The position numbers were made by a program, and so were the translations under genes. This document shows positions 36,636 to 48,922 of a stretch of DNA of 64,000 bases, piece after piece (positions within the stretch are counted from its first letter, which is position 1; each line of letters begins with the position of its first letter). Source of the DNA: Bacillota bacterium (lineage in GTDB: Bacteria; Bacillota; Clostridia; Acetivibrionales; DTU013); the NCBI GenBank assembly GCA_023412915.1, contig JAEZRE010000001.1, positions 23,040 to 87,039 on the forward strand. The letters run 5' to 3'. The notes beneath the pieces are model-generated. The model was not told the DNA's origin, ran no database searches, and saw only the letters and a list, made by a program, of their open reading frames with translations.

Positions 36636-36709
36636 CATTTTATCGGGCGATGCATGGAACGGATGCGAGGTAATAGAAGCTATCAAACCGCATATAAATA
36701 AGATAGACT

Positions 36710-36745
36710 AAATGCATAATAAAATGTTATGCATTTTTTAATTTT
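36710..36745 (+). terminator. Intrinsic terminator after asnA
   Basis: Stem AAATGCATAA / TTATGCATTT followed by a T-rich run. Confidence 0.7.
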
Positions 36746-36753
36746 GCGGGGGT

Positions 36754-37122
36754 GTGGTTTTGGGCAGGTACAGGCTTGCTGCAATATATTTTCTGGCAAT
36801 ACTGTTTGCGCTGTCTCTGACGCAGATTTTTATTGATTCGCAAACAGGAACTTCAACACATGCCAGTACACAGGCGGTAAAAAGGACGTATACGATATTT
36901 GTCGAAATAGAGGATAAAACTTTATATCTGCTCGAAAATGGCAAATGCATAAAGGAATACAGGATAGCGTCCGGAATGTCCGGCTTGCCTTCGCCTTTGG
37001 GCTGCTGGAAGATAGTCGAAAAAGGCGACTGGGGCGAAGGCTTTGGGGGCAGATGGATGGGGCTTGACGTACCTTGGGGGACATTCGGTTTTGGAACACT
37101 GTTTAGAATCCAGGCTCTTTAA
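36754..37122 (+). pseudogene. L,D-transpeptidase (YkuD family), 5' fragment interrupted at codon 108
   Basis: Membrane anchor plus ..GLPSPLGCWKIVEKGDWGEGFGGRWMGLDVPW. After 37076 the frame runs into element DNA (GTFGFGTLFRIQAL*). The catalytic HG..SHGCIR motif is missing. Confidence 0.85.
37066..37099. other. attL (B arm - TG - P' arm)
   Basis: GACGTACCT-TG-GGGG-ACATTCGGTTTTGGAACAC. The central TG is at 37075-37076. The P' arm at 37081-37099 is an inverted repeat of 48452-48470. Confidence 0.7.
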
Positions 37123-38728
37123 ATTTATAACGTATTTCTATTTTCTTATTTTCGTAAATATCAATTCTGTCTATAAGCTTTTGTAAAAGGATTTTATCCG
37201 GTTCATCAAGTCTCAGCAATTCCATGGCGAGCTTCCTTAAGCCTTGGCCATCTTTTACCGACTCATTATGCTTCTGTTTTCTGACGGAGAGTTTCGAGAG
37301 TTTAGTATTCAGCTGCTCTCTTTCTTCATTATATTCTTTGGACAGATTGATAAAGTCCTGCTCTGCTATGACACCCTTCAGTTTGTCCTCGTAGAGATTC
37401 CTGATTATCCTTTTTATTTCGGTCAGCCGGTCGCCTGCGGCTGATATGTCGTTTTCCAATCCTGTACTGTTGTTTTTATGCAGGTGTTTTTCTGCGAGAT
37501 CAGCAAGTCTGCCTTGATCCAGCGACACCCTGGAGATTCTAATCAAATCTGAAATGACAAGAGCTTCGAGATCCTTTTCCAATACCGCATGCCTTGTACA
37601 GACCTTCTGCTTCCTATAACGCTTGTACTTAGAGCAGATAACATAGCCGTATCCCGAAGGAGTTTTTGTGTATGTCATCTTTTCTCCACAATCGGCACAA
37701 TATAAAAGACCCGAGAGTATATGAGGGTATCGCTTTTCGTATTCCACCATGCGGCCGTTGTTGTGTATCATCTGCTGTACCAGGTCAAAGGTTTCCTGGA
37801 CCACTATTGCCTCATGGGTATTCGGTACTATTACCCAAGCCTGCCTCGGCATGTTTATCAGCTTATCGACCTTGTAATTGACCTTCTGGCATCTGCGCTG
37901 TGTAATGCTCCCGCAATATGTCGGCTTGGTGAGTATATACTTTATCGTGTCACAATTCCACATGCCCAAATGCGATTTGGGATTCCTGTAATTCGTTCTA
38001 TTGCTTTTGTACACTGCGGGGCTTAAAATGTGCTCACTATTGAGAATATCCGCTATCGCGGAGTATGATTTTCCCTGAAGAAACAGGTCGAAAATCCGCC
38101 TTACGACGGCGGAGGTTTCTTCATTGATCTTTAGCTTGTGTTTGTCGTTCGGATCCTTATAATAGCCATATGGAGCGAAGGAGCCGATGAATTCGCCATT
38201 TTCCCTCTTTCTGTCGATAACCGATCTGACCTTTTTTGAAATATCCTTTGCATACCAGTCATTCATGATGGATTTGAAAGGCCCAATGTCATTTGAGGGG
38301 CAATCCCCGGCATAGGTGTCGATCCCGTCGAGAAGGGCAATAAACCGGATCTTTCGTTCGGGAAAATACTTTTCCAGATAATGCCCTGTGACAATATAAT
38401 CCCGGCCAAGCCTGCTCAAATCCTTTGTGATAACTGTGTTAATCCTTTTACTTTCAATATCCGCAAGCATTCTCTTGAAATCCGGTCTGTTAAAGTTAGT
38501 GCCGCTGTAGCCGTCGTCGGCGTATATTTCGACAAGCTTCCAGCCTTGATCGGCAACATACTTTGTCAACAGCTCTTTTTGGTTCAAGATACTTTCAGAG
38601 TTTACATTATCCTTTTCCTCGTCTTCCCTGGACAATCTTAAATAAATACCCACTCTGGAAGTTTGGCTGCCATAAAAGGATGAATAGTTTCCCGAGGCGT
38701 AAATCATCTGATTCCTACCTTTTCCCAA
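37103..38728 (-). CDS. Large serine recombinase (resolvase/invertase N-domain, recombinase domain, Zn-ribbon, coiled coil)
   Basis: Catalytic motif VGIYLRLSREDE..SESILNQ, resolvase core DLSRLGRD, Zn-ribbon CADCGEKM..C..C, and a long C-terminal coiled coil. The more likely start is the ATG at 38707 (MIYASG..), which follows an AAGGTAGGA RBS. Confidence 0.9.
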   Translation of the reverse strand: MGKGRNQMIYASGNYSSFYGSQTSRVGIYLRLSREDEEKDNVNSESILNQKELLTKYVADQGWKLVEIYADDGYSGTNFNRPDFKRMLADIESKRINTVITKDLSRLGRDYIVTGHYLEKYFPERKIRFIALLDGIDTYAGDCPSNDIGPFKSIMNDWYAKDISKKVRSVIDRKRENGEFIGSFAPYGYYKDPNDKHKLKINEETSAVVRRIFDLFLQGKSYSAIADILNSEHILSPAVYKSNRTNYRNPKSHLGMWNCDTIKYILTKPTYCGSITQRRCQKVNYKVDKLINMPRQAWVIVPNTHEAIVVQETFDLVQQMIHNNGRMVEYEKRYPHILSGLLYCADCGEKMTYTKTPSGYGYVICSKYKRYRKQKVCTRHAVLEKDLEALVISDLIRISRVSLDQGRLADLAEKHLHKNNSTGLENDISAAGDRLTEIKRIIRNLYEDKLKGVIAEQDFINLSKEYNEEREQLNTKLSKLSVRKQKHNESVKDGQGLRKLAMELLRLDEPDKILLQKLIDRIDIYENKKIEIRYKFKEPGF

Positions 38729-38854
38729 TTACTTCTCAGCTGTTTGCGTTAAAACAATCTTCAAATATTCTTCAATCAGCTCCTGAAAGGATTTGCCCTC
38801 ATCGTTGAAAATTGAAATTACGGCGACTTCCGATGTATCTTTATTCGGATGCAT
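38729..38854 (-). CDS. Small ORF (41 aa) immediately upstream of the recombinase gene
   Basis: MHPNKDTSEVAVISIFNDEGKSFQELIEEYLKIVLTQTAEK. Its stop codon abuts the recombinase RBS. It is below the track cut-off and no family was recognised. Confidence 0.3.
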   Translation of the reverse strand: MHPNKDTSEVAVISIFNDEGKSFQELIEEYLKIVLTQTAEK

Positions 38855-39013
38855 AAACAATACCTCGCTGATAATAATTATTCAGATGAAGCTTGTCTAT
38901 ATTACATTTGCATATTTTACATAAGCCGCCATAAAGCTGAATACTATCAAATCAGGGGAAGGCACTTTATTTTTTACGACTTCAATTGCAGCCGGACAAA
39001 TAAACAGTATTAA

Positions 39014-39042
39014 TTGAAAATACATATATATTAGGATACAAT
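39014..39042 (+). promoter_or_regulatory. Candidate promoter for the RR-HK-PBP operon
   Basis: TTGAAA (39014-39019), 17-nt spacer, TACAAT (39037-39042). Confidence 0.45.
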
Positions 39043-39106
39043 AGGTATTGATTGGCACGGGTCTATCTGTTTTTAAAGCCATTTTCAGGACATAGGGGGT
39101 AATTTT

Positions 39107-40792
39107 GTGTACAAGCTCCTATTGGTCGATGATGAAAACGACGTCAGAGAAGGGATTCTGCAGGAAATTGACTGGAAGGCTAATGGCTTTGAGGTCGTTG
39201 GGACAGCGGAAAACGGGAAGGAAGCCTATGACCTGGTAGAGAGGTTTGTCCCTGATATAGTTGTCACCGATATCAAAATGCCATTCATGGATGGGCTTGC
39301 CTTGACTGAACTGATCCGCCGGAGATATCCCGCCGTCTGTATCGTCATACTGACCGGCTTTGATGAATTCGAATTCGCACAGAAAGCAATCAGGCTTCAT
39401 GTAGATGAATATGTACTTAAGCCTTTTTCCTCGCAGGAACTGCTCCAGGTATTGGTAAGGATCAGACAGATGAAGGATGAGGAGGCTGCTGAAAAGAGGA
39501 ATATCCTGAAGCTCCGGGAGCTCTATAATGAAAGCCTTCCGGTGCTTAAAGCCAACTTTCTCACTCTTTTGATCACTAAAAAGCTGGAGGAAGCGGAAAT
39601 CCTTGATAAATCGTGCAAACTGGATATTGATCTATGTAAAAAAGGTTTTCTGGTGTCGGTTATCAGGCTTGATCTGATGTGGCTCAATTCGCCTGAAGAG
39701 AACCCGGTGGTCGAACAGGGAGAGGGAACCGTTGCGGAAAACCGGGATGAGGACGGGGAGCTGAACCTGTTTGCCGTTCTGAACATTGTTGAGGAGCTTG
39801 TGGAAAAACACGCTCTGGGAATTGTTTTCATCCATAACGGCGATATCGTTGTATTAAGCCTGAACGAAGCAGAGGAAAGCGAGGCGTTTATTGCTCTGAC
39901 CATTAACGCTCTGGAAGAAATCCGCTACTCTGTGGAAAAGTATCTGGGACTGTCAGTAACAGCCGGTGTGGGTACGTTCTGCGATTCTGTTACCGGTATC
40001 AGCAATTCTTACAAGGATGCGCGTCTGGCACTTGATTACAAAGTATTGCTGGGAAACAACAGGATAATATTGATCAGCGATCTCGAAGTTCGCAATGCCA
40101 AAAAGGCTGTTTTCGATGAATTGAAGGAAGATATCCTCGCCTACTGCATAAAGGTAGGTGCGTTTTCTGAAGTCACGAAACTCATAGATACGGTTTTCAA
40201 CGACCTTGCCGAAGCCGGTGCTTCCTTCAAGGAATGCCAGCTATATCTGATGGAAATCGTGACGTCTCTCTTGAAAATTGCTAAAAACTCCAACGTTGAT
40301 ATCAATTGTATCATAGATGACAGTTTCAAATTGTTCCCGGAGATCGGCCGCTTTAACAATCTGCAGGAGGCAAGGAACTGGACTCTTGGCGTCTGTAACA
40401 GAATAGCGGACATCATCGCCAGCAACAGGCAGGATAATTTCAGACAAATAGTAGCCAATGCGAAGGAGTTTACCAGAAACCATTTCCATGAGAGCGATCT
40501 TACGATCAACAAGGTATGCGGGGAGCTGCACATCAGTCCCAGTTACTTCTGTACCATATTCAAAAAAGAGACTAAATCCACCTATCTGGCTTATCTCGTT
40601 CAGCTTAGAATGGATACCGCACGGGAGCTGCTGCGGATGACCGACCTTAAATCCTTTGAGATCGCCGAACGGATAGGATTTTCCGACGCGAATTATTTCA
40701 GTAACAGCTTTAAGAAATATACGGGGTATTCTCCTTCCGAATTCAGAAATAGAAGTCGAGGTCAAAGTGTTGGGGAAAGAGCATTTTATTAA
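39107..40792 (+). CDS. Response regulator with an AraC-type HTH output (YesN-like)
   Basis: REC domain (LLLVDDE..TDIKMPFMDG..KP) and a C-terminal AraC HTH (ANYFSNSFKKYTGYSPSEFR). Confidence 0.9.
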   Translation: MYKLLLVDDENDVREGILQEIDWKANGFEVVGTAENGKEAYDLVERFVPDIVVTDIKMPFMDGLALTELIRRRYPAVCIVILTGFDEFEFAQKAIRLHVDEYVLKPFSSQELLQVLVRIRQMKDEEAAEKRNILKLRELYNESLPVLKANFLTLLITKKLEEAEILDKSCKLDIDLCKKGFLVSVIRLDLMWLNSPEENPVVEQGEGTVAENRDEDGELNLFAVLNIVEELVEKHALGIVFIHNGDIVVLSLNEAEESEAFIALTINALEEIRYSVEKYLGLSVTAGVGTFCDSVTGISNSYKDARLALDYKVLLGNNRIILISDLEVRNAKKAVFDELKEDILAYCIKVGAFSEVTKLIDTVFNDLAEAGASFKECQLYLMEIVTSLLKIAKNSNVDINCIIDDSFKLFPEIGRFNNLQEARNWTLGVCNRIADIIASNRQDNFRQIVANAKEFTRNHFHESDLTINKVCGELHISPSYFCTIFKKETKSTYLAYLVQLRMDTARELLRMTDLKSFEIAERIGFSDANYFSNSFKKYTGYSPSEFRNRSRGQSVGERAFY

Positions 40793-42566
40793 AACACTGT
40801 TAAAACCGTTCCATACGTTGTTTGAATTTCTGAGAGTCAGGAGCATACAGTTCTTCATCTCTTCCTCCATCATGCTCATTACCCTCACCGCGATGCTTTT
40901 TGTCGGACTGATGCTGTACAGCAAGTTCAATAAATCGGCGGAACAGAACGCTATCATCAGCACCAGGCAGGTGATCGACCAGGTCAATCTGAATCTGGAT
41001 TATTATCTTCGCAGCATGATGGAGATATCGGATTCTTTGAACGACCTGATCGGATATAAGCAGGATATCGATGAGAACAGGCTGATCGAGCAGATGAATG
41101 TGATCCTCGATACGAGGAAGGATATCGTTTCCCTCGGCATATTTTCCAGAGAAGGCAAGGTTGTAGTCGGCTCGCCCTCATATAAAATGAAGGACGTAAA
41201 CATCACCATACAGGATTGGTTCAGCGAACCTGTGAACGAACCCGCAAACCTTTATTTTTCTTCACCTCATGTGCAGAATATCTTCGAAAGCCGGCATAAC
41301 TGGGTGGTTTCTCTCAGCAGGGAAGTCGCCTTCTATAAAAACAATGCAAAGGAACAAGGCGTACTGCTCGTCGATATGAATTTCAGCTCTCTTGACCAGC
41401 TCTGCCAGAAGGCAAAGCTTGGTAAAAAGGGGTACATCTATCTTGTGGATTCCAGCGGAAATATCGTGTATCACCCGCAGCAGCAGCTGATCAACGCCGG
41501 ACTGAAATCGGAAAATGTGGAAGAAGTGATGAATCACATCTCCGGAATCTATTTCGATAAATTCAACGGTCAGAATCGCATGATCACGATCCAAACCGTC
41601 AATTTCTGCAGGTGGAGAATCGTTGGTATAGCCTACATGGACGAAATCGTTACAACTAAAAAGGAGATCGGTGTTTTTATCTTTTGGACCTTCCTTTTCG
41701 GCACGGTGTTTGTATTCTTCATCTCCGCCTTTCTTTCCGCAAAGATATCCCAGCCGATAAAAGCTCTTGAAAAATCCATGAAAAAGGTGGAAGAGGGCAT
41801 GCTGGACATCGACTTCGGTGTGAAGGGCGAGACGGAAGTCGCAAAACTGGCAGGTACGTATAAAATGATGCTGACCAGAATCCGGCATCTTATGGACCAG
41901 ATCGTGGTTGAGCAGGAATCCAAGCGGAACGCGGAATTTGAGGTGCTGCAATCCCAGATAAACCCCCATTTTCTTTATAACACACTGAATTCAGTGGTCC
42001 GTATGGTGGAATGCGGAAAGAAGGAGGATGCGATCACCATGATCACTTCTCTTTCCAGACTGTTCCGTATCAGTATCAGCAAAGGCAGAAACATCATCAC
42101 CATTCAGGAGGAACTGGAGCACGCCAGCCATTACCTGACCATCCAGCAGATCCGATATAAAAACAAGTTCCAGTTTGAGATAAATTCTCAGAAAGCAGTG
42201 CTGCAATGCAGAATTATCAAGCTTATTCTTCAGCCAATCATCGAAAACGCCATTTACCATGGAATTGAACATATGGTGGACGACGGGCAAATCAAGGTCA
42301 CTGCGGAGATATTCAACGGAAAGCTGCTGCTCCAGGTGTCGGATAACGGGGCGGGGATAAGGCGCGAGGTGTTGGAAAACATCCTTGCCGCGCGAATGGA
42401 AAACAAAGAGGGCAGGGGAGTAGGCGTAAAAAACGTGCATGATAGGATACAGCTTTATTATGGCAAGGAGTATGGTTTGGAATTCGAAAGCGAGGTTGAC
42501 GTCGGTACAACCGTTAAAATCTGGCTCCCTTATGTGGGAGAGCTCGCAGCCGGGGGTGCGGAATGA
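40767..42566 (+). CDS. Sensor histidine kinase (YesM/LytS-like: two TM helices, HAMP, His_kinase, HATPase)
   Basis: LQSQINPHFLYNTLNS H-box, N box IIENAIYHG, G boxes DNGAGI and GVGVKNV. Confidence 0.9.
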   Translation: MLGKEHFIKTLLKPFHTLFEFLRVRSIQFFISSSIMLITLTAMLFVGLMLYSKFNKSAEQNAIISTRQVIDQVNLNLDYYLRSMMEISDSLNDLIGYKQDIDENRLIEQMNVILDTRKDIVSLGIFSREGKVVVGSPSYKMKDVNITIQDWFSEPVNEPANLYFSSPHVQNIFESRHNWVVSLSREVAFYKNNAKEQGVLLVDMNFSSLDQLCQKAKLGKKGYIYLVDSSGNIVYHPQQQLINAGLKSENVEEVMNHISGIYFDKFNGQNRMITIQTVNFCRWRIVGIAYMDEIVTTKKEIGVFIFWTFLFGTVFVFFISAFLSAKISQPIKALEKSMKKVEEGMLDIDFGVKGETEVAKLAGTYKMMLTRIRHLMDQIVVEQESKRNAEFEVLQSQINPHFLYNTLNSVVRMVECGKKEDAITMITSLSRLFRISISKGRNIITIQEELEHASHYLTIQQIRYKNKFQFEINSQKAVLQCRIIKLILQPIIENAIYHGIEHMVDDGQIKVTAEIFNGKLLLQVSDNGAGIRREVLENILAARMENKEGRGVGVKNVHDRIQLYYGKEYGLEFESEVDVGTTVKIWLPYVGELAAGGAE

Positions 42567-43543
42567 ACAAGAAGGGAAAGCTGCTCGTCCTGTTCCTTGT
42601 TATTATGATTTTGCCCAGTATTAGCGGCTGTCAGAGGAATCTCAACCTCGAAGGCACCACAAAAAATATTGCGCTCATCGTAAGAATGAATAACGGGTAT
42701 TACTGGGGTTCCGTAAAACTGGGCGCCGATGCGGCGGCTAACGAATTCAATGTGAATGTGCGTTATACTGCTCCGGAGGACGAGGAGGATGTGGAAGGTC
42801 AGATCCGTTTAGTCAACTCGGAGCTGGATCAGAAGGTGGACGCGTTGATCCTTGCGGCAAGCGATTACAACGCGCTTGTCGAAGTGACGGAAAGAGCCGC
42901 CGGCATGCATATTCCAGTCATTATCATCGATTCGGAAGTAAATACCGACAAGATCGACAGCTATATCGCCACGGACAATAACGACGCCGGAATCAAGGCA
43001 GGCAAGCAGCTTGTCAAGCTTCTTGCAGGAAGCGAAGGGGAGAAAAAGGTAGGCATTATGAACTTCGTAAAGGGTACCAGGAATGCCGAGCAGAGGGAAG
43101 AAGGCCTGCTGAAGGCTATATCCGCCTACCCCGGCATCAAGGTAGTAGCGAAGGAATACTGTTCTTCCGATAAAAAGCTGGCGTCCGAGCTGACACAAAA
43201 GATGATCCGGGATAACAATGATATCCGCGCCATAGTTGCGTTGAACGCCATATCTTCGGAGGGGGTCGCAGAAGCGGTTTCACAGTTGGACCTGGCTGGA
43301 AAGGTGAACATCATCGCTTTTGACAGCACGCCCAATGAGATCGATTATATGGAAAAAGGCGTCATACAGGTATTGATCACTCAGAATCCGTTCAATATGG
43401 GATATCTGAGTGTGAAATACGCGGTCGACGCGATGAATGGGGTAAGCATCGGCAAGTACTATGATACGGGGTCGGAAATAATCAATAAGGACAATATGTA
43501 TCTGCCGGAAAACCAGAGGCTTCTATTCCCGTTCATTAAATAG
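42563..43543 (+). CDS. Periplasmic sugar-binding protein, probable sensor partner of the HK (three-component system)
   Basis: Lipoprotein signal (PSISGC) and a type I PBP fold (LILAASDY, IIDSEV, IIAFDSTP). It is translationally coupled to the HK gene by an ATGA overlap. Confidence 0.8.
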   Translation: MNKKGKLLVLFLVIMILPSISGCQRNLNLEGTTKNIALIVRMNNGYYWGSVKLGADAAANEFNVNVRYTAPEDEEDVEGQIRLVNSELDQKVDALILAASDYNALVEVTERAAGMHIPVIIIDSEVNTDKIDSYIATDNNDAGIKAGKQLVKLLAGSEGEKKVGIMNFVKGTRNAEQREEGLLKAISAYPGIKVVAKEYCSSDKKLASELTQKMIRDNNDIRAIVALNAISSEGVAEAVSQLDLAGKVNIIAFDSTPNEIDYMEKGVIQVLITQNPFNMGYLSVKYAVDAMNGVSIGKYYDTGSEIINKDNMYLPENQRLLFPFIK

Positions 43544-43602
43544 CATATCAGACATCGGATGTAAAATGTGGCAGAACACAAAGCAGTGCAGGAGGCGCCG
43601 AA

Positions 43603-44607
43603 ATGAGGAGAATCCTATCGGTATTTCTAATGGCGTGTTTGCTGGGTTGCGCGGCAGCCGGATGCGGAAGCGGCGCCGGACCCCGCAACGTACGAATTGG
43701 CTGTGCGATCTACAAATTTGACGACACGTTCATGACTACTGTGAGAAACTATATATCGGAGGCTGCCGTAGGGAAGGCTGAGGTGGAAATCGTAGACAGC
43801 CAGAATTCGCAGCAAATCCAGAACGACAAGATAGATCTGTTCATTGCAAAGAAGGTGAAGGCGCTGGCCATCAACCCGGTGGACCGGACGACGGCGGGCG
43901 TTATGCTTGAAAAGGCGAGGAAGGCAAATATCCCCATCGTTTTTTTCAACAAGGAACCGCTGGCTGATGACATGAAGAAATGGGACAAGGTTTTTTATGT
44001 GGGGGCCAAGGCTGAAGAATCCGGCGCTATGCAGGGAGAACTGGTGGCGAACTATTGGAAAACCCACCCGGAAGCGGACATAAACAAGGATGGCATCATG
44101 CAATATGTCATGCTGAAGGGTGAGCCTGCACATCAGGATGCGGAGCTTCGGACGAAGTATTCGGTACAGACGGTTCAGGACGCCGGCATCGAGGTGGAAA
44201 AGCTGGCGGAGGATAACGCCGACTGGGACCGGGTAAAAGGCCAGGAAAAGATGTCGGCATTTCTTGCGACAAATGGTGACAGGATTGAAGTGGTATTTTC
44301 CAACAACGATGATATGGCGCTGGGTGCGATCGAAGCGCTCAAAGCGGCGGGATATTTCAGGGACGGCAGATATATTCCGGTTGTAGGGATAGATGCAATC
44401 ACTCCGGCTCTTCAGGCGATAAAAGAAGGGACGCTTCTGGGAACGGTGTTCAACGACGGTGAAAATCAGGGCCGGGCAACCTTCAATCTCGCGCTTGCCC
44501 TGGCTCAGGGGAAACCGGCCAGCAAGGAAACCGTCGGATATGAAATCACGGATGGGAAATATATTTGGGTACCGTACAAAAAAGTAACGAGGAACGATAT
44601 TCAGTAG
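43603..44607 (+). CDS. mglB: Galactose/glucose (methyl-galactoside) ABC transporter substrate-binding lipoprotein, copy 1
   Basis: Lipobox LLGCAAAGC. IGCAIYKFDDTFMTTVRN..VFFNKEP..YYVGA..LKGEPAHQDAELR aligns along its whole length with E. coli MglB. Confidence 0.85.
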   Translation: MRRILSVFLMACLLGCAAAGCGSGAGPRNVRIGCAIYKFDDTFMTTVRNYISEAAVGKAEVEIVDSQNSQQIQNDKIDLFIAKKVKALAINPVDRTTAGVMLEKARKANIPIVFFNKEPLADDMKKWDKVFYVGAKAEESGAMQGELVANYWKTHPEADINKDGIMQYVMLKGEPAHQDAELRTKYSVQTVQDAGIEVEKLAEDNADWDRVKGQEKMSAFLATNGDRIEVVFSNNDDMALGAIEALKAAGYFRDGRYIPVVGIDAITPALQAIKEGTLLGTVFNDGENQGRATFNLALALAQGKPASKETVGYEITDGKYIWVPYKKVTRNDIQ

Positions 44608-44709
44608 GATTTTCAAGATCATCTCGCAGGATTTTATATTCTACATCCCGCAAACCTGAGATATTATGAAAGCACCCCGGTACTATAATAAATTTTGGAG
44701 GTGCTTTCT

Positions 44710-45723
44710 GTGAAAAAGTTCGTTTCCTTTCTTCTTGTAGCACTATTGATGGTAAGCATGTGCGCGGCCTGCACACCGGCAGACGGCGGGAAACCTTCCA
44801 TCGGCGTAACCATTTACAAATTCGACGACACATTCATGACTTCCGTACGTAACACAATCGCAGCGGAGGGGAAAGACCAGGCAAACGTTGAAATCGCTGA
44901 CTGTCAGAATTCCCAGCCGACCTGTAATGACAAGGTTGACATGTTTATTACCAAGAAGGTAAAATCTCTTGCCATCAACATGGTCGACCGTACCGCATCA
45001 GGCGTTATTATCGACAAAGCCAAGGCCAAGAACATTCCGGTCGTGTTCTTCAACCGGCAGCCGTTGGAAGAAGACATGGCAAAATGGGATAAGGTTTATT
45101 ATGTAGGCGCCCATGCCGAAGAATCAGGAGTCATGGAAGGCCAGATGCTGGTCGACTATTGGAAGGCACACAAGGAGATGGATGTAAACGGGGATGGCGT
45201 GATGCAGTATGTTATGATCAAGGGCGAACCCGGACATCAGGATTCTGAAGCACGTGCCAAATATTCTGTCGAGACCATAGAAAAAGCTGGGATCAAGACG
45301 GAAAAACTGGCTGAAGACAATGCAAACTGGGATCGTGTAAAGGGTCAGGAAAAGATGGCTGCATTCCTTACCGCCAACAGCGGTAAAATCGAAGCTGTTA
45401 TCGCCTGCAACGACGATATGGCCCTCGGCGCCATCGAAGCCTTGAAGGCTGCAGGTTACTTCACCGGCGACAAATACATGCCTGTGGTAGGTGTTGACGC
45501 CACAGCTCCCGGCCTCGCGGCAATCAAAGACGGCACGCTCCTTGGAACGGCCTATAATGACGGTATAAACCAGGGTAAAGCAACATATAAGATAGCATAC
45601 CTTCTTGCCAAAGGCGAAAAGCTTACCAAGGAGAATGTAGGGTATGACATAGTGGACGGCAAGTATGTCTGGGTACCGTATAAGGGTATTACAAAGGCAA
45701 ACATGAGTGAAGTTCCGCAATAA
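44710..45723 (+). CDS. mglB: Galactose/glucose ABC transporter substrate-binding lipoprotein, copy 2
   Basis: GTG start after a GGAGG RBS, and lipobox SMCAAC. IGVTIYKFDDTFMTSVRN..VFFNRQP..IKGEPGHQDSEAR is a tandem paralogue of the preceding gene. Confidence 0.85.
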   Translation: MKKFVSFLLVALLMVSMCAACTPADGGKPSIGVTIYKFDDTFMTSVRNTIAAEGKDQANVEIADCQNSQPTCNDKVDMFITKKVKSLAINMVDRTASGVIIDKAKAKNIPVVFFNRQPLEEDMAKWDKVYYVGAHAEESGVMEGQMLVDYWKAHKEMDVNGDGVMQYVMIKGEPGHQDSEARAKYSVETIEKAGIKTEKLAEDNANWDRVKGQEKMAAFLTANSGKIEAVIACNDDMALGAIEALKAAGYFTGDKYMPVVGVDATAPGLAAIKDGTLLGTAYNDGINQGKATYKIAYLLAKGEKLTKENVGYDIVDGKYVWVPYKGITKANMSEVPQ

Positions 45724-45773
45724 GAAGCAACAGTCCGGAATCAGAATCCGGTAGCATTTTTGGATAAATCCAT

Positions 45774-45804
45774 GGGGGGTTTTATACCCCCCGGGATTTC
45801 TTTT
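45774..45804 (+). terminator. Intercistronic stem-loop / partial terminator after the binding-protein genes
   Basis: GGGGGG-TTTTATA-CCCCCC followed by GGGATTTCTTTT. Confidence 0.45.
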
Positions 45805-45839
45805 ATGACTGAATAAGAGTAGAACACAGGGGGAGCAAG

Positions 45840-47357
45840 ATGGATGAAAATGAGTTTATTTTGGAAATGAATCATATTTCTAAGGAATTTCCCGGTGTGA
45901 AAGCTCTCAATGACGTAACTGTCAAACTCCGCGCAGGCACGGTTCATGCACTGATGGGCGAAAATGGAGCTGGGAAATCGACACTGATGAAATGTCTTTT
46001 TGGCATCTACATCCAGGATTCAGGCGAAATCATTCTGGATGGGAAAAAGATGGAGATCAATGATTCCAAAACTGCGCTGAAGCTTGGGATTTCCATGATT
46101 CATCAGGAGCTTCAGTCCATACCGTACCGCAGCGTTATGGAAAACATATGGCTGGGACGGTTTCCTCTGAAAAGATTTGGCCCGATCAAACTGGTTAATC
46201 ACAAAAAAATGTACAATGATACGGAAAAGTTACTTAAGGACCTCAACATGGATATCGATCCTGCAGCCATTGTCAACAAGCTTTCCGTTTCAAAGGTACA
46301 GTCAATGGAGATTGCAAAGGCGACATCCATGAATGCAAAGGTCATTATCATGGACGAACCGACCTCCTCTCTGACGGAGAATGAAGTCGAACATTTGTTT
46401 AGAATCATACGCGATTTGAAAAGACAAGGCGTCGCGATTATTTACATATCGCATAAAATTGAAGAAATCCTGCAGATCTCGGATGAGGTAACGATAATGC
46501 GGGATGGAATGTGCGTCGGGACATGGCCGTCCTCGGAGCTGACAATGGACTTGATCATTTCCAGAATGGTAGGGCGTGACCTGATTCACAGATTTCCAGA
46601 GCGTTCGAATATACCGTCGGATGTCGTGCTGAAGGTGGAAAATCTGACCTCCCCTTATCCGAAGTGCTTCAGGGATGTTTCCTTCGACCTGCGCAGAGGG
46701 GAGATACTTGGCGTCGGAGGACTGGTTGGAGCTCAAAGAACGGAGCTGATAGAGGCGATCTTCGGACTCAGGAGCATTGAGTCCGGGAGGATTCTGCTAA
46801 ACGGCCGGGAGGTTAAAATCAAATCGCCGCTGGAGGCTATCAAGATGAAAATAGCTCTGCTGACCGAGGAACGCAGGGCCAGCGGTATTTTCCCACTGCT
46901 TTCCGTACTGGAGAATACGGTCATCGCGAACCTGGCAGGTTATGTGAAACGGCTGTTTCTGCTCGATGACAGGGGAAGACTGGCCGACACGCTGAAAAGC
47001 ATAGAAATGCTCCGTATAAAAACTCCCTCCTTCAAGGCGCTTATCAAGGATTTGTCCGGCGGTAACCAGCAAAAGGTCCTCTTTGCCAGATGGTTGCTGA
47101 CCCAACCGGATATATTGCTGCTTGACGAGCCGACACGCGGAATCGATGTCGGGGCGAAGTTTGAAATCTATACGATTATCGCTAATCTGGCCATGCAAGG
47201 CAAGAGCATTATAATGATCTCTTCTGAAATGCCTGAATTGCTCGGCATGTCGGATAGGATCATGGTTATGTGTGAAGGAAGGCTCTCTGGAGTTGTAAAC
47301 GGAAAGGAAACTAGCCAGGAAGAGATCATGCAGCTTGCGAGTCAATTTATGGCATAG
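45840..47357 (+). CDS. mglA: Sugar ABC transporter ATPase with duplicated ABC domains (MglA-like)
   Basis: Two nucleotide-binding domains: GENGAGKST / LSVSKVQ in the first, and LSGGNQQK / LLLDEPTRGID in the second. Confidence 0.9.
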   Translation: MDENEFILEMNHISKEFPGVKALNDVTVKLRAGTVHALMGENGAGKSTLMKCLFGIYIQDSGEIILDGKKMEINDSKTALKLGISMIHQELQSIPYRSVMENIWLGRFPLKRFGPIKLVNHKKMYNDTEKLLKDLNMDIDPAAIVNKLSVSKVQSMEIAKATSMNAKVIIMDEPTSSLTENEVEHLFRIIRDLKRQGVAIIYISHKIEEILQISDEVTIMRDGMCVGTWPSSELTMDLIISRMVGRDLIHRFPERSNIPSDVVLKVENLTSPYPKCFRDVSFDLRRGEILGVGGLVGAQRTELIEAIFGLRSIESGRILLNGREVKIKSPLEAIKMKIALLTEERRASGIFPLLSVLENTVIANLAGYVKRLFLLDDRGRLADTLKSIEMLRIKTPSFKALIKDLSGGNQQKVLFARWLLTQPDILLLDEPTRGIDVGAKFEIYTIIANLAMQGKSIIMISSEMPELLGMSDRIMVMCEGRLSGVVNGKETSQEEIMQLASQFMA

Positions 47358-47376
47358 GAAAGGTAGGAATCACGCA

Positions 47377-48393
47377 ATGGACGATTTAAGAACGATGAAT
47401 GGTTCCAAAAGATTAATAGAGTTAATAAAACAAAACGCGATATTTGTGAGTCTTGTAGTACTGGTCCTGATCATCATAGCGGTAAATCCGGCTTTCTTGA
47501 GTTTTACGGTCCTGCGTGACATCCTGATCCAGGTATCGACAAGAATCATTATCGCGCTGGGCGCCGCAATCGTTTTAATCACGGCGGGATGCGATCTTTC
47601 AGCCGGACGTATGGTGGGAATCGCCGCGGTATTATCAGGGTCTCTTCTTCAGACACAGGAATATGCCAGAAGGTTTTATCCGAATATGCAGGACCTGCCT
47701 ATATGGCTTCCGATTGTGATCGGTATCGTAGCGTGTTTGCTTTTTGGCCTTCTGAACGGTTTTTTTGTATCCCGGTTCAGTGTCCCTCCATTTATAGCTA
47801 CTTTGGCGACCACCTGTATTCTTTACGGTGCAAATTCACTGTATGTCAGCATCAAACCGAACGAATCCCAACCAATTGCCGGGTATCGTCCCGATTTTAC
47901 CTTTTTGGGGTCCGGGTATGTTTTGGGTATTCCCGTCATCATCATGATTGCTGTTGCCGTCACCCTGATAACATGGGTGCTGCTTAACAAGACCAGGTTT
48001 GGAAAGAATATTTATGCAGTAGGCGGTAACGTCACCGCTGCCAAGGTATCGGGAATCAATGTGAATCGTACCTTACTGGGTGTATATGCATATGCCGGAG
48101 CACTTTATGGACTTGCCGGCGTTTTGGAATCCGCGAGGACCGGAGGAGCGAACAACAACTACGGTGTGGGCTATGAACTGGATGCCATTGCGGCTTCTGT
48201 CGTAGGCGGAGTTTCTCTGATGGGAGGCATCGGCACTGTTCCGGGTATTATAATCGGTGTTCTGATCTTCGGCGTATTGAATTACGGCTTGACCTTTGTA
48301 GGAATGAATCCATATTGGCAGCAGATCATCAAGGGCGCAATCATTGTTGTTGCTGTTGCATTTGATATACGGAAGTATCTTACGAAAAAATAA
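47377..48393 (+). CDS. mglC: Sugar ABC transporter permease (MglC/RbsC family)
   Basis: Polytopic protein with GGIDLSAGR-like TAGCDLSAGRMVG and AVGGNVTAAKVSGINV motifs. The start was set at the ATG at 47377, after an AAAGGTAGGA RBS. Confidence 0.88.
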   Translation: MDDLRTMNGSKRLIELIKQNAIFVSLVVLVLIIIAVNPAFLSFTVLRDILIQVSTRIIIALGAAIVLITAGCDLSAGRMVGIAAVLSGSLLQTQEYARRFYPNMQDLPIWLPIVIGIVACLLFGLLNGFFVSRFSVPPFIATLATTCILYGANSLYVSIKPNESQPIAGYRPDFTFLGSGYVLGIPVIIMIAVAVTLITWVLLNKTRFGKNIYAVGGNVTAAKVSGINVNRTLLGVYAYAGALYGLAGVLESARTGGANNNYGVGYELDAIAASVVGGVSLMGGIGTVPGIIIGVLIFGVLNYGLTFVGMNPYWQQIIKGAIIVVAVAFDIRKYLTKK

Positions 48394-48451
48394 AGCGGAG
48401 CTGCGCCGGGATCCGGTAATTAGTATGAGCCGGTGGTCTCCGTTTTCGGGC

Positions 48452-48483
48452 GTGTTCCAAAACGGTATGCAGGGTGGGGTACC
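48452..48483. other. attR (P arm - TG - B' arm)
   Basis: GTGTTCCAAAACGGTATGC-AGGG-TG-GGGTACC, with the central TG at 48475-48476. Confidence 0.7.
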
Positions 48484-48861
48484 TACGGTATCCATGGTAC
48501 GCTTGCCGACGGCTCGATAGGCTCGGCATCGAGCCACGGCTGCATACGGATGTTCAACGAAGATGTGGCCGAGCTCTACAACCTTGTGCCCATAGGAACG
48601 GAGGTTGTCATTGTAAACGGACAGTTCGGGCCTTTTGGCAGGGGTTTTTCAGAGATAAATCCGGGCGATCGGGGCTCTGACGTATATGCCATACAGCAGA
48701 GGCTCAGGCAGCTGGGATATTATAGCGGTCCGTTCGACGGAATATATGAGGATGACCTTAAAAAGGCGCTGCACAAATTCCAGAGAGCCAATGGGCTGAA
48801 AGCGCAGAACACGATCACATACGAATGCTGGCTGAAGATGGATTTCAAGGAGTTTGAGTAA
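48475..48861 (+). pseudogene. L,D-transpeptidase (YkuD family), 3' fragment with the catalytic motif and a peptidoglycan-binding domain
   Basis: [28 protein letters not shown] (catalytic His/Cys) followed by a PG_binding_1-like repeat ([28 protein letters not shown]). It is in frame with the 5' fragment when joined at the TG. The track's GTG at 48433 lies in element DNA and has no RBS. Confidence 0.85.
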
Positions 48862-48922
48862 GGCTCGGGCGGTCCAGGCAGATATAGGTATCCGCCTGGA
48901 TACCTTCTATCTGTCTGAACCG

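Follow-up and report, generated by a model that had tools for sequence, protein, structure and literature searches.

A large serine recombinase element within an L,D-transpeptidase gene of a member of the Clostridia, and the TG dinucleotide at the centre of its attachment sites

The window analysed here, a stretch of 64,000 nucleotides from contig JAEZRE010000001.1 of a Bacillota bacterium of the Acetivibrionales, contains an element of ~11.4 kb (37077-48476) that is integrated within a YkuD-type L,D-transpeptidase gene. A large serine recombinase is encoded at the left border, the two junctions reconstruct a dyad-symmetric attP centred on the dinucleotide TG, and TG is the one sequence common to the junctions of all six elements of this type that were recovered with both ends. 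The explanation that we hold with considerable confidence is an insertion by the large serine recombinase, through recombination of attP on the element with attB in the gene and strand exchange at TG. The gene fragments, junctions and recombinase gene, in window positions, are the following.

36754 to 37076, forward strand: 5′ fragment of the L,D-transpeptidase gene, comprising codons 1-107 and the TG of a Trp codon; Pfam YkuD profile positions 2-61.
37075 to 37079, unstranded: TGGGG core at attL, with the inferred crossover dinucleotide TG at 37075-37076.
37077 to 37099, unstranded: right arm of attP (P′), 23 nucleotides, of which positions 15-23 carry the distal motif TTGGAACAC.
37103 to 38728, reverse strand: large serine recombinase gene adjoining attL, an open reading frame (ORF) of 541 amino acids (aa); Pfam Resolvase, Recombinase and Zn_ribbon_recom.
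48452 to 48474, unstranded: left arm of attP (P), 23 nucleotides, beginning GTGTTCCAAAAC.
48475 to 48479, unstranded: TGGGG core at attR, with the inferred crossover dinucleotide TG at 48475-48476.
48477 to 48861, forward strand: 3′ fragment of the L,D-transpeptidase gene; Pfam YkuD profile positions 88-146 and PG_binding_1, with the catalytic sequence GIHGT...SHGCIRM.

At the left junction, host sequence ending in GGGGCTTGACGTACCT is followed by TGGGG and then by GACATTCGGTTTTGGAACAC; the right junction reads GTGTTCCAAAACGGTATGCAGGG, TGGGG and then host sequence beginning TACCTACGGTATCCATGG. The block common to attL and attR is exactly these five base pairs (bp), with mismatches flanking it on both sides. 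A preliminary description of this DNA had placed the element-side arms at 37081-37099 for attL (ACATTCGGTTTTGGAACAC) and 48452-48470 for attR (GTGTTCCAAAACGGTATGC), with 23 nucleotides of arm on each side of a TG at 37075-37076 and 48475-48476; these sequences and coordinates were re-read without change. The arms are also inverted repeats of each other as had been claimed, matching at 16 of 19 positions with the outer 12 perfect, and an independent repeat search lists the pair as I19. The half-sites of attB are formed by the last ~22 nucleotides of the 5′ fragment (left) and the first ~22 nucleotides of the 3′ fragment (right).

Joining 36754-37079 to 48480-48861 produces an uninterrupted, in-frame ORF of 235 aa, the protein product of which has a membrane anchor, a YkuD L,D-transpeptidase domain with the sequence GIHGT...SHGCIRM, and a PG_binding_1 domain. 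In the motif V-P-W-G-x-Y-G-I-H-G-T, this TG supplies bases one and two of the codon for the invariant Trp. An intact gene, collinear with the 5′ fragment and encoding a protein of 87-88% identity, is present in three genomes of the same genus (G001-G003), and in G001 the site is empty with both of its flanks syntenic with the window: DNA homology jumps from window positions 36741-37089 to 48475-48895, with a 15-nucleotide overlap (37075-37089 and 48475-48489) that contains the core. Precise excision in silico rebuilds intact ORFs here and in five further lineages, and all six rebuilt transpeptidase ORFs are undecayed and keep the catalytic motif S-x-G-C-[IV]-R.

The rebuilt attP, consisting of 23 nucleotides, TG and 23 nucleotides, has the dyad symmetry ascribed to it in the preliminary description: the arms match at 16 of 23 positions with TG as the best centre, the next best centre within ~7 bp gives eight matches, and the binomial tail P(≥16 of 23) is 8.8e-6. 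The symmetry likewise ascribed to attB holds only near the centre. GTACC and GGTAC each lie one base from TG and are conserved, but the symmetry is limited to the inner 5-8 bp and extends no further, and this inner symmetry exists because it is dictated by the codons GTN CCN TGG GGN ACN (Val-Pro-Trp-Gly-Thr). Around TG the rebuilt attB matches at 8 of 16 positions (P = 0.027, weak taken alone); with arms of 16 nucleotides, the TA inside GGTACC beats TG as a centre, and with arms of 23 nucleotides TG is not the unique best centre. A long-arm symmetry of attB, at either length, was rejected, neighbouring centres being equal or better. The argument that TG is non-palindromic, as directionality would require, is correct as to the fact but does not discriminate, as the three GG steps of the core are likewise non-palindromic.

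Forty related genomes were searched with the rejoined transpeptidase protein, and species-representative genomes were scanned with an alignment of the recombinase. The transpeptidase gene is split at residues ~104-112 in many of the 40 genomes and the scan added six further cases, bringing the elements found at these Pro-Trp-Gly codons to at least 15, in 15 genomes. The recombinases of these related elements are 46-53% identical to that of the window and adjoin the junction; at the loci from the 40 genomes, the recombinase gene and the 5′ gene fragment converge next to each other as they do in the window. The elements measure 3.6, 8.4, 11.4, 14.3 and ~65 kb, and their cargo is unrelated and differs in every element; that of 3.6 kb carries no transfer genes. 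Among the six elements with both ends, the blocks of identity between attL and attR are TGGGG, CCCTGGGG, TG, CCTGGGG, TGG and CCCTGGGG, with TG alone common to all. The attP dyad is centred on TG in six of six (14-19 of 23 matches, with at most 11 for the runner-up), and the arm length of 21, 22 or 23 nucleotides varies symmetrically on both sides of TG. A serine recombinase requires identity across its 2-bp overlap, and therefore TG is the sole possible crossover for the G037 element, the core of which is TG alone; the core of the G032 element is TGG. By homology and symmetry, TG is supported as the probable crossover of the window element too.

Elements were found in both orientations relative to the transpeptidase gene, with the TG in the gene constant. 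At four loci (L030, L034, L039, L041), the recombinase gene, an att arm, TG and the 3′ gene fragment follow one another on the same strand, an arrangement inverted with respect to the window type, and the sister recombinases of G023 and L034 (support 100) differ in the orientation of their elements. Functionally symmetric arms, with the direction set by the central dinucleotide alone, would be expected to yield both orientations with a fixed TG.

Two of the split genes depart from the common pattern. At G034:C24:114611-180208 (L020, L021), an insertion of ~65 kb interrupts the transpeptidase gene; its att arms are typical (19 of 23 dyad matches), and the 46%-identical recombinase is located ~42 kb inside (135982-137532), away from the junction; this insertion may be a composite or nested element. 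At G007:C9:160223-160620 (L025), there is a 5′ transpeptidase fragment with an attP-type arm only, which may be a decayed copy or reflect an assembly gap.

When half-sites are read outward from TG, the consensus of 21 attP half-sites is gGGtAcAT....tTt.G.Aaca, that of the attB right half-site is GGG.A..TAcGG.ATcCAtGG.AC and that of the attB left half-site is GGGtACgTTaAgcCCcATCCA. Across all four half-site classes the inner 8 bp are similar, which fits a recombinase domain that would bind attP and attB in the same register. In the structure of a Listeria integrase on its attP, zinc-ribbon contacts are located at positions 16-24 in the numbering of that paper (PMC3783163), and the distal attP motif of the present family falls where these contacts are made. 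For a weight matrix built from attP positions 11/12-22/23, the best fit to attB is at shifts of -6 and -5 for the 17-type arms and -5 and -5 for the 16-type arms; an inward shift of the distal motif by 5-6 bp in attB was thus found in four of four matrix tests, matching the rule proposed in PMC3783163. By half-site consensus and weight matrix, the larger attP with distal motifs and the smaller attB that the preliminary description had proposed hold family-wide.

For the chemistry at TG, the assignment of protein domains to DNA motifs and any excision, we infer the following scheme. Integration would occur between a pseudo-palindromic attP of ~50 bp on the element and attB in the coding sequence of the YkuD-type gene, catalysed by the large serine recombinase, which would make a 2-bp staggered cut and exchange strands at TG. 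Its recombinase domain would bind the inner ~8 bp of every half-site, a GGGtACAT-like sequence, while its zinc-ribbon domain would bind the distal TTGGAACAC-like motif, which in attP is 15-23 bp from the centre and in attB ~5 bp nearer to it. The orientation of the insertion would be fixed by the non-palindromic TG alone. The reverse reaction of attL with attR would require a directionality factor, and precise removal of the element would restore the gene for the 235-aa protein.

The recombinase is complete, with the domains expected of its type (PF00239, 2.9e-22; PF07508, 1e-21; PF13408, 1.1e-14). Its true start is likely to be the ATG at 38707, which is preceded by AAGGTAGGA and would give a protein of 534 aa. 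In an alignment of 15 family members Y29, R31, S33 and R34 are invariant, and the catalytic Arg-x-Ser-Arg is kept. An AlphaFold model (mean predicted local distance difference test score, pLDDT, of 75) consists of a resolvase-like domain, a long E-helix, a recombinase domain, a zinc ribbon with strands at 342-383 and a helical hairpin of 30 and 50 residues (421-450 and 456-506). The best Foldseek matches of the model are the integrases of SPbeta (9dxh, E 2e-23), PhiC31, Bxb1 and Listeria (entries 9dxh, 9tep, 9iu2 and 4kis), whereas the best matches to the catalytic domain by sequence in the PDB are TnpX and TP901-1; several homologues of the recombinase bear the DUF4368 region of TnpX. The nearest relative in the databases shares only 56% identity with it. 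Against 50,697 phage records the best match reaches 36%, compared with 38-56% for chromosomal relatives outside phages.

Other large serine recombinases were noted near sporulation genes in the same set of genomes. A second gene, 31-34% identical to that of the window, precedes spoIVA by 1.1-1.4 kb in three genomes that belong to different families: G000:C19:261564-263129 (the source genome, on another contig), G007:C81:12203-13495 and G036:C311:446-1816. This suggests a conserved chromosomal position or a common insertion site. A third recombinase gene of the source genome (G000:C7:92607-94247) is 1.3 kb from an intact gene for a PdaB-type deacetylase (C7:95553-96323).

The remainder of the element consists of a small ORF and the cargo.

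38729 to 38854, reverse strand: acidic ORF of 41 codons that abuts the recombinase start; candidate directionality factor.
39107 to 48393, forward strand: cargo, encoding by Pfam an AraC-type response regulator, a histidine kinase, three sugar-binding proteins, an ABC ATPase and a permease.

Homologues of the small ORF, by position and sequence, are directly upstream of the recombinase gene in ~40 of 88 family loci (L017-L019 and ~36 of L027-L106), those of the sigK type included. They share the motif F/Y-x3-G-K-S/T-L/F-x-E-L-hydrophobic, and no family match to the ORF was found in Pfam or NCBIfam. The 41-aa product is perhaps a directionality factor like GirX. In front of the cargo, a ACATATATAT box is present at 39020-39045 on the forward strand, ~70-80 nucleotides upstream of the response regulator gene, with AC 17 nucleotides before the box; judged by eye, it resembles mother-cell-type -10 boxes elsewhere in the source genome.

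The sequence abutting the 3′ end of the recombinase gene was classified for the 80 closest relatives of the window recombinase (loci L027-L106), with a family search on one representative flank per class.

sigK fragment, 23 loci: 22 at the 3′ fragment (...SRIEKKAL), usually 34 nucleotides past the recombinase stop, and one at the 5′ fragment; NCBIfam SigK, 6e-73 (5′ fragment).
cotJA, cotJB or cotJC, 12 loci: Pfam CotJA, 1.5e-12; CotJB, 1.4e-27; Mn_catalase, 8e-44.
PdaB-type sporulation deacetylase, 5 loci: TIGR02764, 1e-51.
L,D-transpeptidase of the window type, 5 loci: tblastn with the rejoined protein of the window.
SafA-like LysM protein, 2 loci: TIGR02899 (SafA/ExsA LysM domain), 6.9e-19.
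SleB-like peptidoglycan-binding protein, 1 locus (L053): TIGR02869 (SleB, N-terminal part), 5e-15.
SWIM zinc-finger protein, 3 loci: Pfam SWIM, 3.9e-4.
No class given, 29 loci: including L040, by a gene for a collagen-like repeat protein, and L036, a sixth transpeptidase case in which the gene is farther from the recombinase.

The relatives that abut sigK, cotJ and pdaB genes are 37-48% identical to the window recombinase. In a quick maximum-likelihood tree the targets are strongly clustered, with 21 changes compared with 49 when shuffled, and the window recombinase belongs to a clade of transpeptidase, cotJ and pdaB targeters (92 in the Shimodaira-Hasegawa-like approximate likelihood ratio test, SH-aLRT), beside a clade that includes the sigK (skin-type) group. 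As regards a single origin of the transpeptidase-targeting recombinases, the quick tree gives five changes, at least two of them forced. The host is an endospore former, possessing SpoIVA, SpoIIID and YabP (the latter two by ORF reading) and homologues of SigK, CotJB/C, PdaB and GPR found by tblastn. Co-occurrence of the elements with sporulation was dropped as evidence; SpoIVA is present in 39 of 41 relatives, which leaves it without discriminating power.

Upstream of the transpeptidase gene are promoter-like boxes.

36670 to 36700, forward strand: GTAATAGAAG, 10 nucleotides, then GCATATAAATA.

Across genera, 10 of 11 orthologous upstream regions retain the GCATATAAATA box together with a TATT/ATA element located 16-17 nucleotides before it; the intergenic DNA around them is not conserved. 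A -10 box of this CATATA type is also present upstream of yabP, spoIIID, spoIVA, sigK and pdaB in the source genome. A genome-wide search for GCATATAAATA, allowing one mismatch, gave 58 matches with a downstream ORF, among them yabP and spoIIID plus many unrelated genes, a list that is suggestive and defines no regulon. In Clostridioides difficile, sigma-E and sigma-K have a common -10 box (for example CATATAAT) with ATA or AC at -35, and the sigma-K-dependent envelope genes listed for this species include CD3007, which encodes an L,D-transpeptidase (PMC3789822). The -10 box of the present gene fits sigma-E/K, and its -35 and spacing are ambiguous; the box is probably of the mother-cell type (sigma-E or sigma-K). 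Between the promoter-like box and the start codon, at 36711-36740, is a hairpin with a 12-bp stem followed by six T (AAATGCATAATAAAATGTTATGCATTTTTT). The 61 nucleotides at 36700-36760 have a minimum free energy of -10.8 kcal/mol (z = -1.96), and the hairpin is also present in five orthologous leaders (L005, L006, L008, L013, L016). It may serve as a leader terminator or as a palindromic operator.

Taken together, the targets, the tree, the spore-forming host, the intact rebuilt genes and the promoter box make a life style of the skin or gin type probable for the element, with the chances close to even. It would then be a sporulation intervening element, silent in the germ line and excised only in the mother cell, where its removal would rebuild an L,D-transpeptidase for maturation of the spore wall. 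A single recombinase family would serve mother-cell genes in this manner, its apparent targets being sigK, cotJABC, pdaB, the gene for a SafA-like LysM protein and the transpeptidase gene, each at codons of invariant residues.

Several observations weigh against the insertion at TG or the excision in the mother cell. Within the window element alone, the identity of TGGGG permits four 2-bp crossovers, among which TG is chosen by symmetry and by homologues only 46-53% identical, and on the attB left half-site the zinc-ribbon motif fits poorly, with scores below zero. The directionality factor for the element is a candidate, the 41-aa ORF. That ORF and the recombinase gene appear to have a sigma-70-like promoter, TAGACA-17-TATTAT, which scores 10 of 12, and no clear sporulation-type box was found upstream of them. 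In the G007 genome, which is 93% complete, neither a close recombinase nor a 3′ transpeptidase fragment was found. A scan of metagenome contigs with one degenerate pattern for attB, attP, attL and attR of the same species found no empty or circular form, and matched only unrelated genes and one foreign intact transpeptidase gene. As to the crossover itself, the window recombinase might act at one of the three GG steps of TGGGG instead of TG, since all four dinucleotides of the core are non-palindromic and identical in attL and attR, and identity alone cannot choose between them. A shift of the centre by 1-2 bp, however, cuts the symmetry of attP from 16 of 23 to at most eight, the relatives in G037 and G032 have only TG and only TGG in common, and the inner motif GGGtAC.T is in register across the four half-site classes only when counted from TG. 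A GG crossover is accordingly very unlikely.

An alternative to developmental excision is that the element is an ordinary integrative island that has knocked out a dispensable transpeptidase gene, with no link to sporulation. The self-contained cargo for sugar sensing and uptake could be selected on its own, paralogous YkuD genes occur elsewhere in the source genome, and the sigma-70-like promoter and the solitary 5′ fragment with its att arm in G007 would be in keeping with such an island. Against an island of this kind, sigK, cotJABC, a PdaB-type deacetylase gene, a SafA-like LysM gene or this transpeptidase gene adjoins the recombinase gene in at least 48 of the 80 closest relatives, the gene halves are undecayed in six independent lineages with the catalytic motif kept, the conserved CATATA-type box is like those of spoIVA, spoIIID, yabP, sigK and pdaB, and the 3.6-kb relative lacks any transfer genes. 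We take the island seriously as a possibility while considering it, on balance, somewhat improbable. Far less credible is a decayed prophage, a skin-like remnant with a phage integrase, even if skin, SPbeta, vfbin and vrin derive from prophages (PMC4191935) and the best structural match of the recombinase is the SPbeta integrase: no phage gene was identified by Pfam in the 11.4 kb, the cargo of related elements is non-phage, and the best match among the phage records falls below the chromosomal relatives. At 36% identity for that match, a phage origin of the element was rejected.

The att-site logic of an element inserted at TG by its large serine recombinase is that of all large serine integrases, and the reading of attP and attB from junctions is routine. 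An intervening life style, if present, would place it with skin, SPbeta, vfbin, vrin and gin (PMC4191935, PMC5025042, PMC5595907); the principle has been known since skin and sigK, so the advance is incremental. A full-text literature search, which was not exhaustive, found no paper that describes cotJC or pdaB as targets of intervening elements, and one that included the transpeptidase, also not exhaustive, found none that describes it as such a target. The peptidoglycan L,D-transpeptidase gene joins the candidates for rebuilding by DNA excision, as do the cotJ operon and the gene for a PdaB-type deacetylase, and one recombinase family accounts for many such cases at sporulation genes in uncultured Clostridia. 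The elements also amount to a naturally occurring series, in which at least 15 diverged integrases act on one small attB fixed by invariant Pro-Trp-Gly codons, with attP arms that differ. This series pins the crossover to TG by comparison and is material for the study of how zinc-ribbon and recombinase domains read DNA, and the family is a possible source of new pairs of integrase and att sites for engineering.

Among known systems, skinCd of C. difficile has a large serine recombinase, CD1231, which integrates alone, and a 72-aa acidic recombination directionality factor, CD1234, which is needed for excision (PMC5025042). As in the window, a large serine recombinase element is located inside the coding sequence of a gene of a spore former, with junctions that form an imperfect inverted repeat of ~22 bp around a short common core, and 23 of the 80 closest relatives of the window recombinase are at a sigK fragment. 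The target of skinCd is sigK rather than an L,D-transpeptidase gene, however, and recombinases of the sigK type are only 37-41% identical to that of the window and form a separate clade; the cargo of the window element is a sugar uptake module, and its directionality factor and mother-cell control are putative. The gin element in gerE of Bacillus cereus ATCC10987, with GirC and the 42-aa GirX of proven activity (PMC5595907), is likewise a non-phage intervening element with a large serine recombinase and a very small, often unannotated factor, comparable to the conserved 41-aa ORF here. In contrast to the window element, gin has three recombinases and a 9-bp common core, with no symmetric attB noted; the 41-aa ORF, a candidate factor, is likened to GirX by its size, with no sequence relationship established.

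In SPbeta of Bacillus subtilis, excision by SprA with SprB rebuilds the mother-cell gene spsM (PMC5499854; PDB 9dxh). In structure, the modelled recombinase is matched best by SprA (Foldseek E 2e-23), but sequence identity is ~20% and SPbeta is an active phage of 134 kb. The integrase of Listeria A118 (LI) acts on a pseudo-palindromic attP with half-sites of 25 bp, an inner region common to attP and attB (PMC3783163; PDB 4kis), a distal zinc-ribbon motif at 16-24 in attP and ~5 bp closer in attB, and a non-palindromic central dinucleotide that sets polarity (PMC3783163). All of these att-site features are matched in the window family, whereas the protein family (the window recombinase has a TnpX-like N-terminal domain), the motifs and the target gene are different, and the contacts of domains with motifs are predicted rather than seen in a structure. 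Among proteins of solved structure, TnpX of Clostridium perfringens Tn4451 (PDB 2mhc) comes nearest in sequence to the catalytic domain (E 1.6e-27). TnpX excises and inserts its transposon at GA dinucleotides in many sites, whereas the transpeptidase-targeting family of the window is specific for one codon triplet of one gene.

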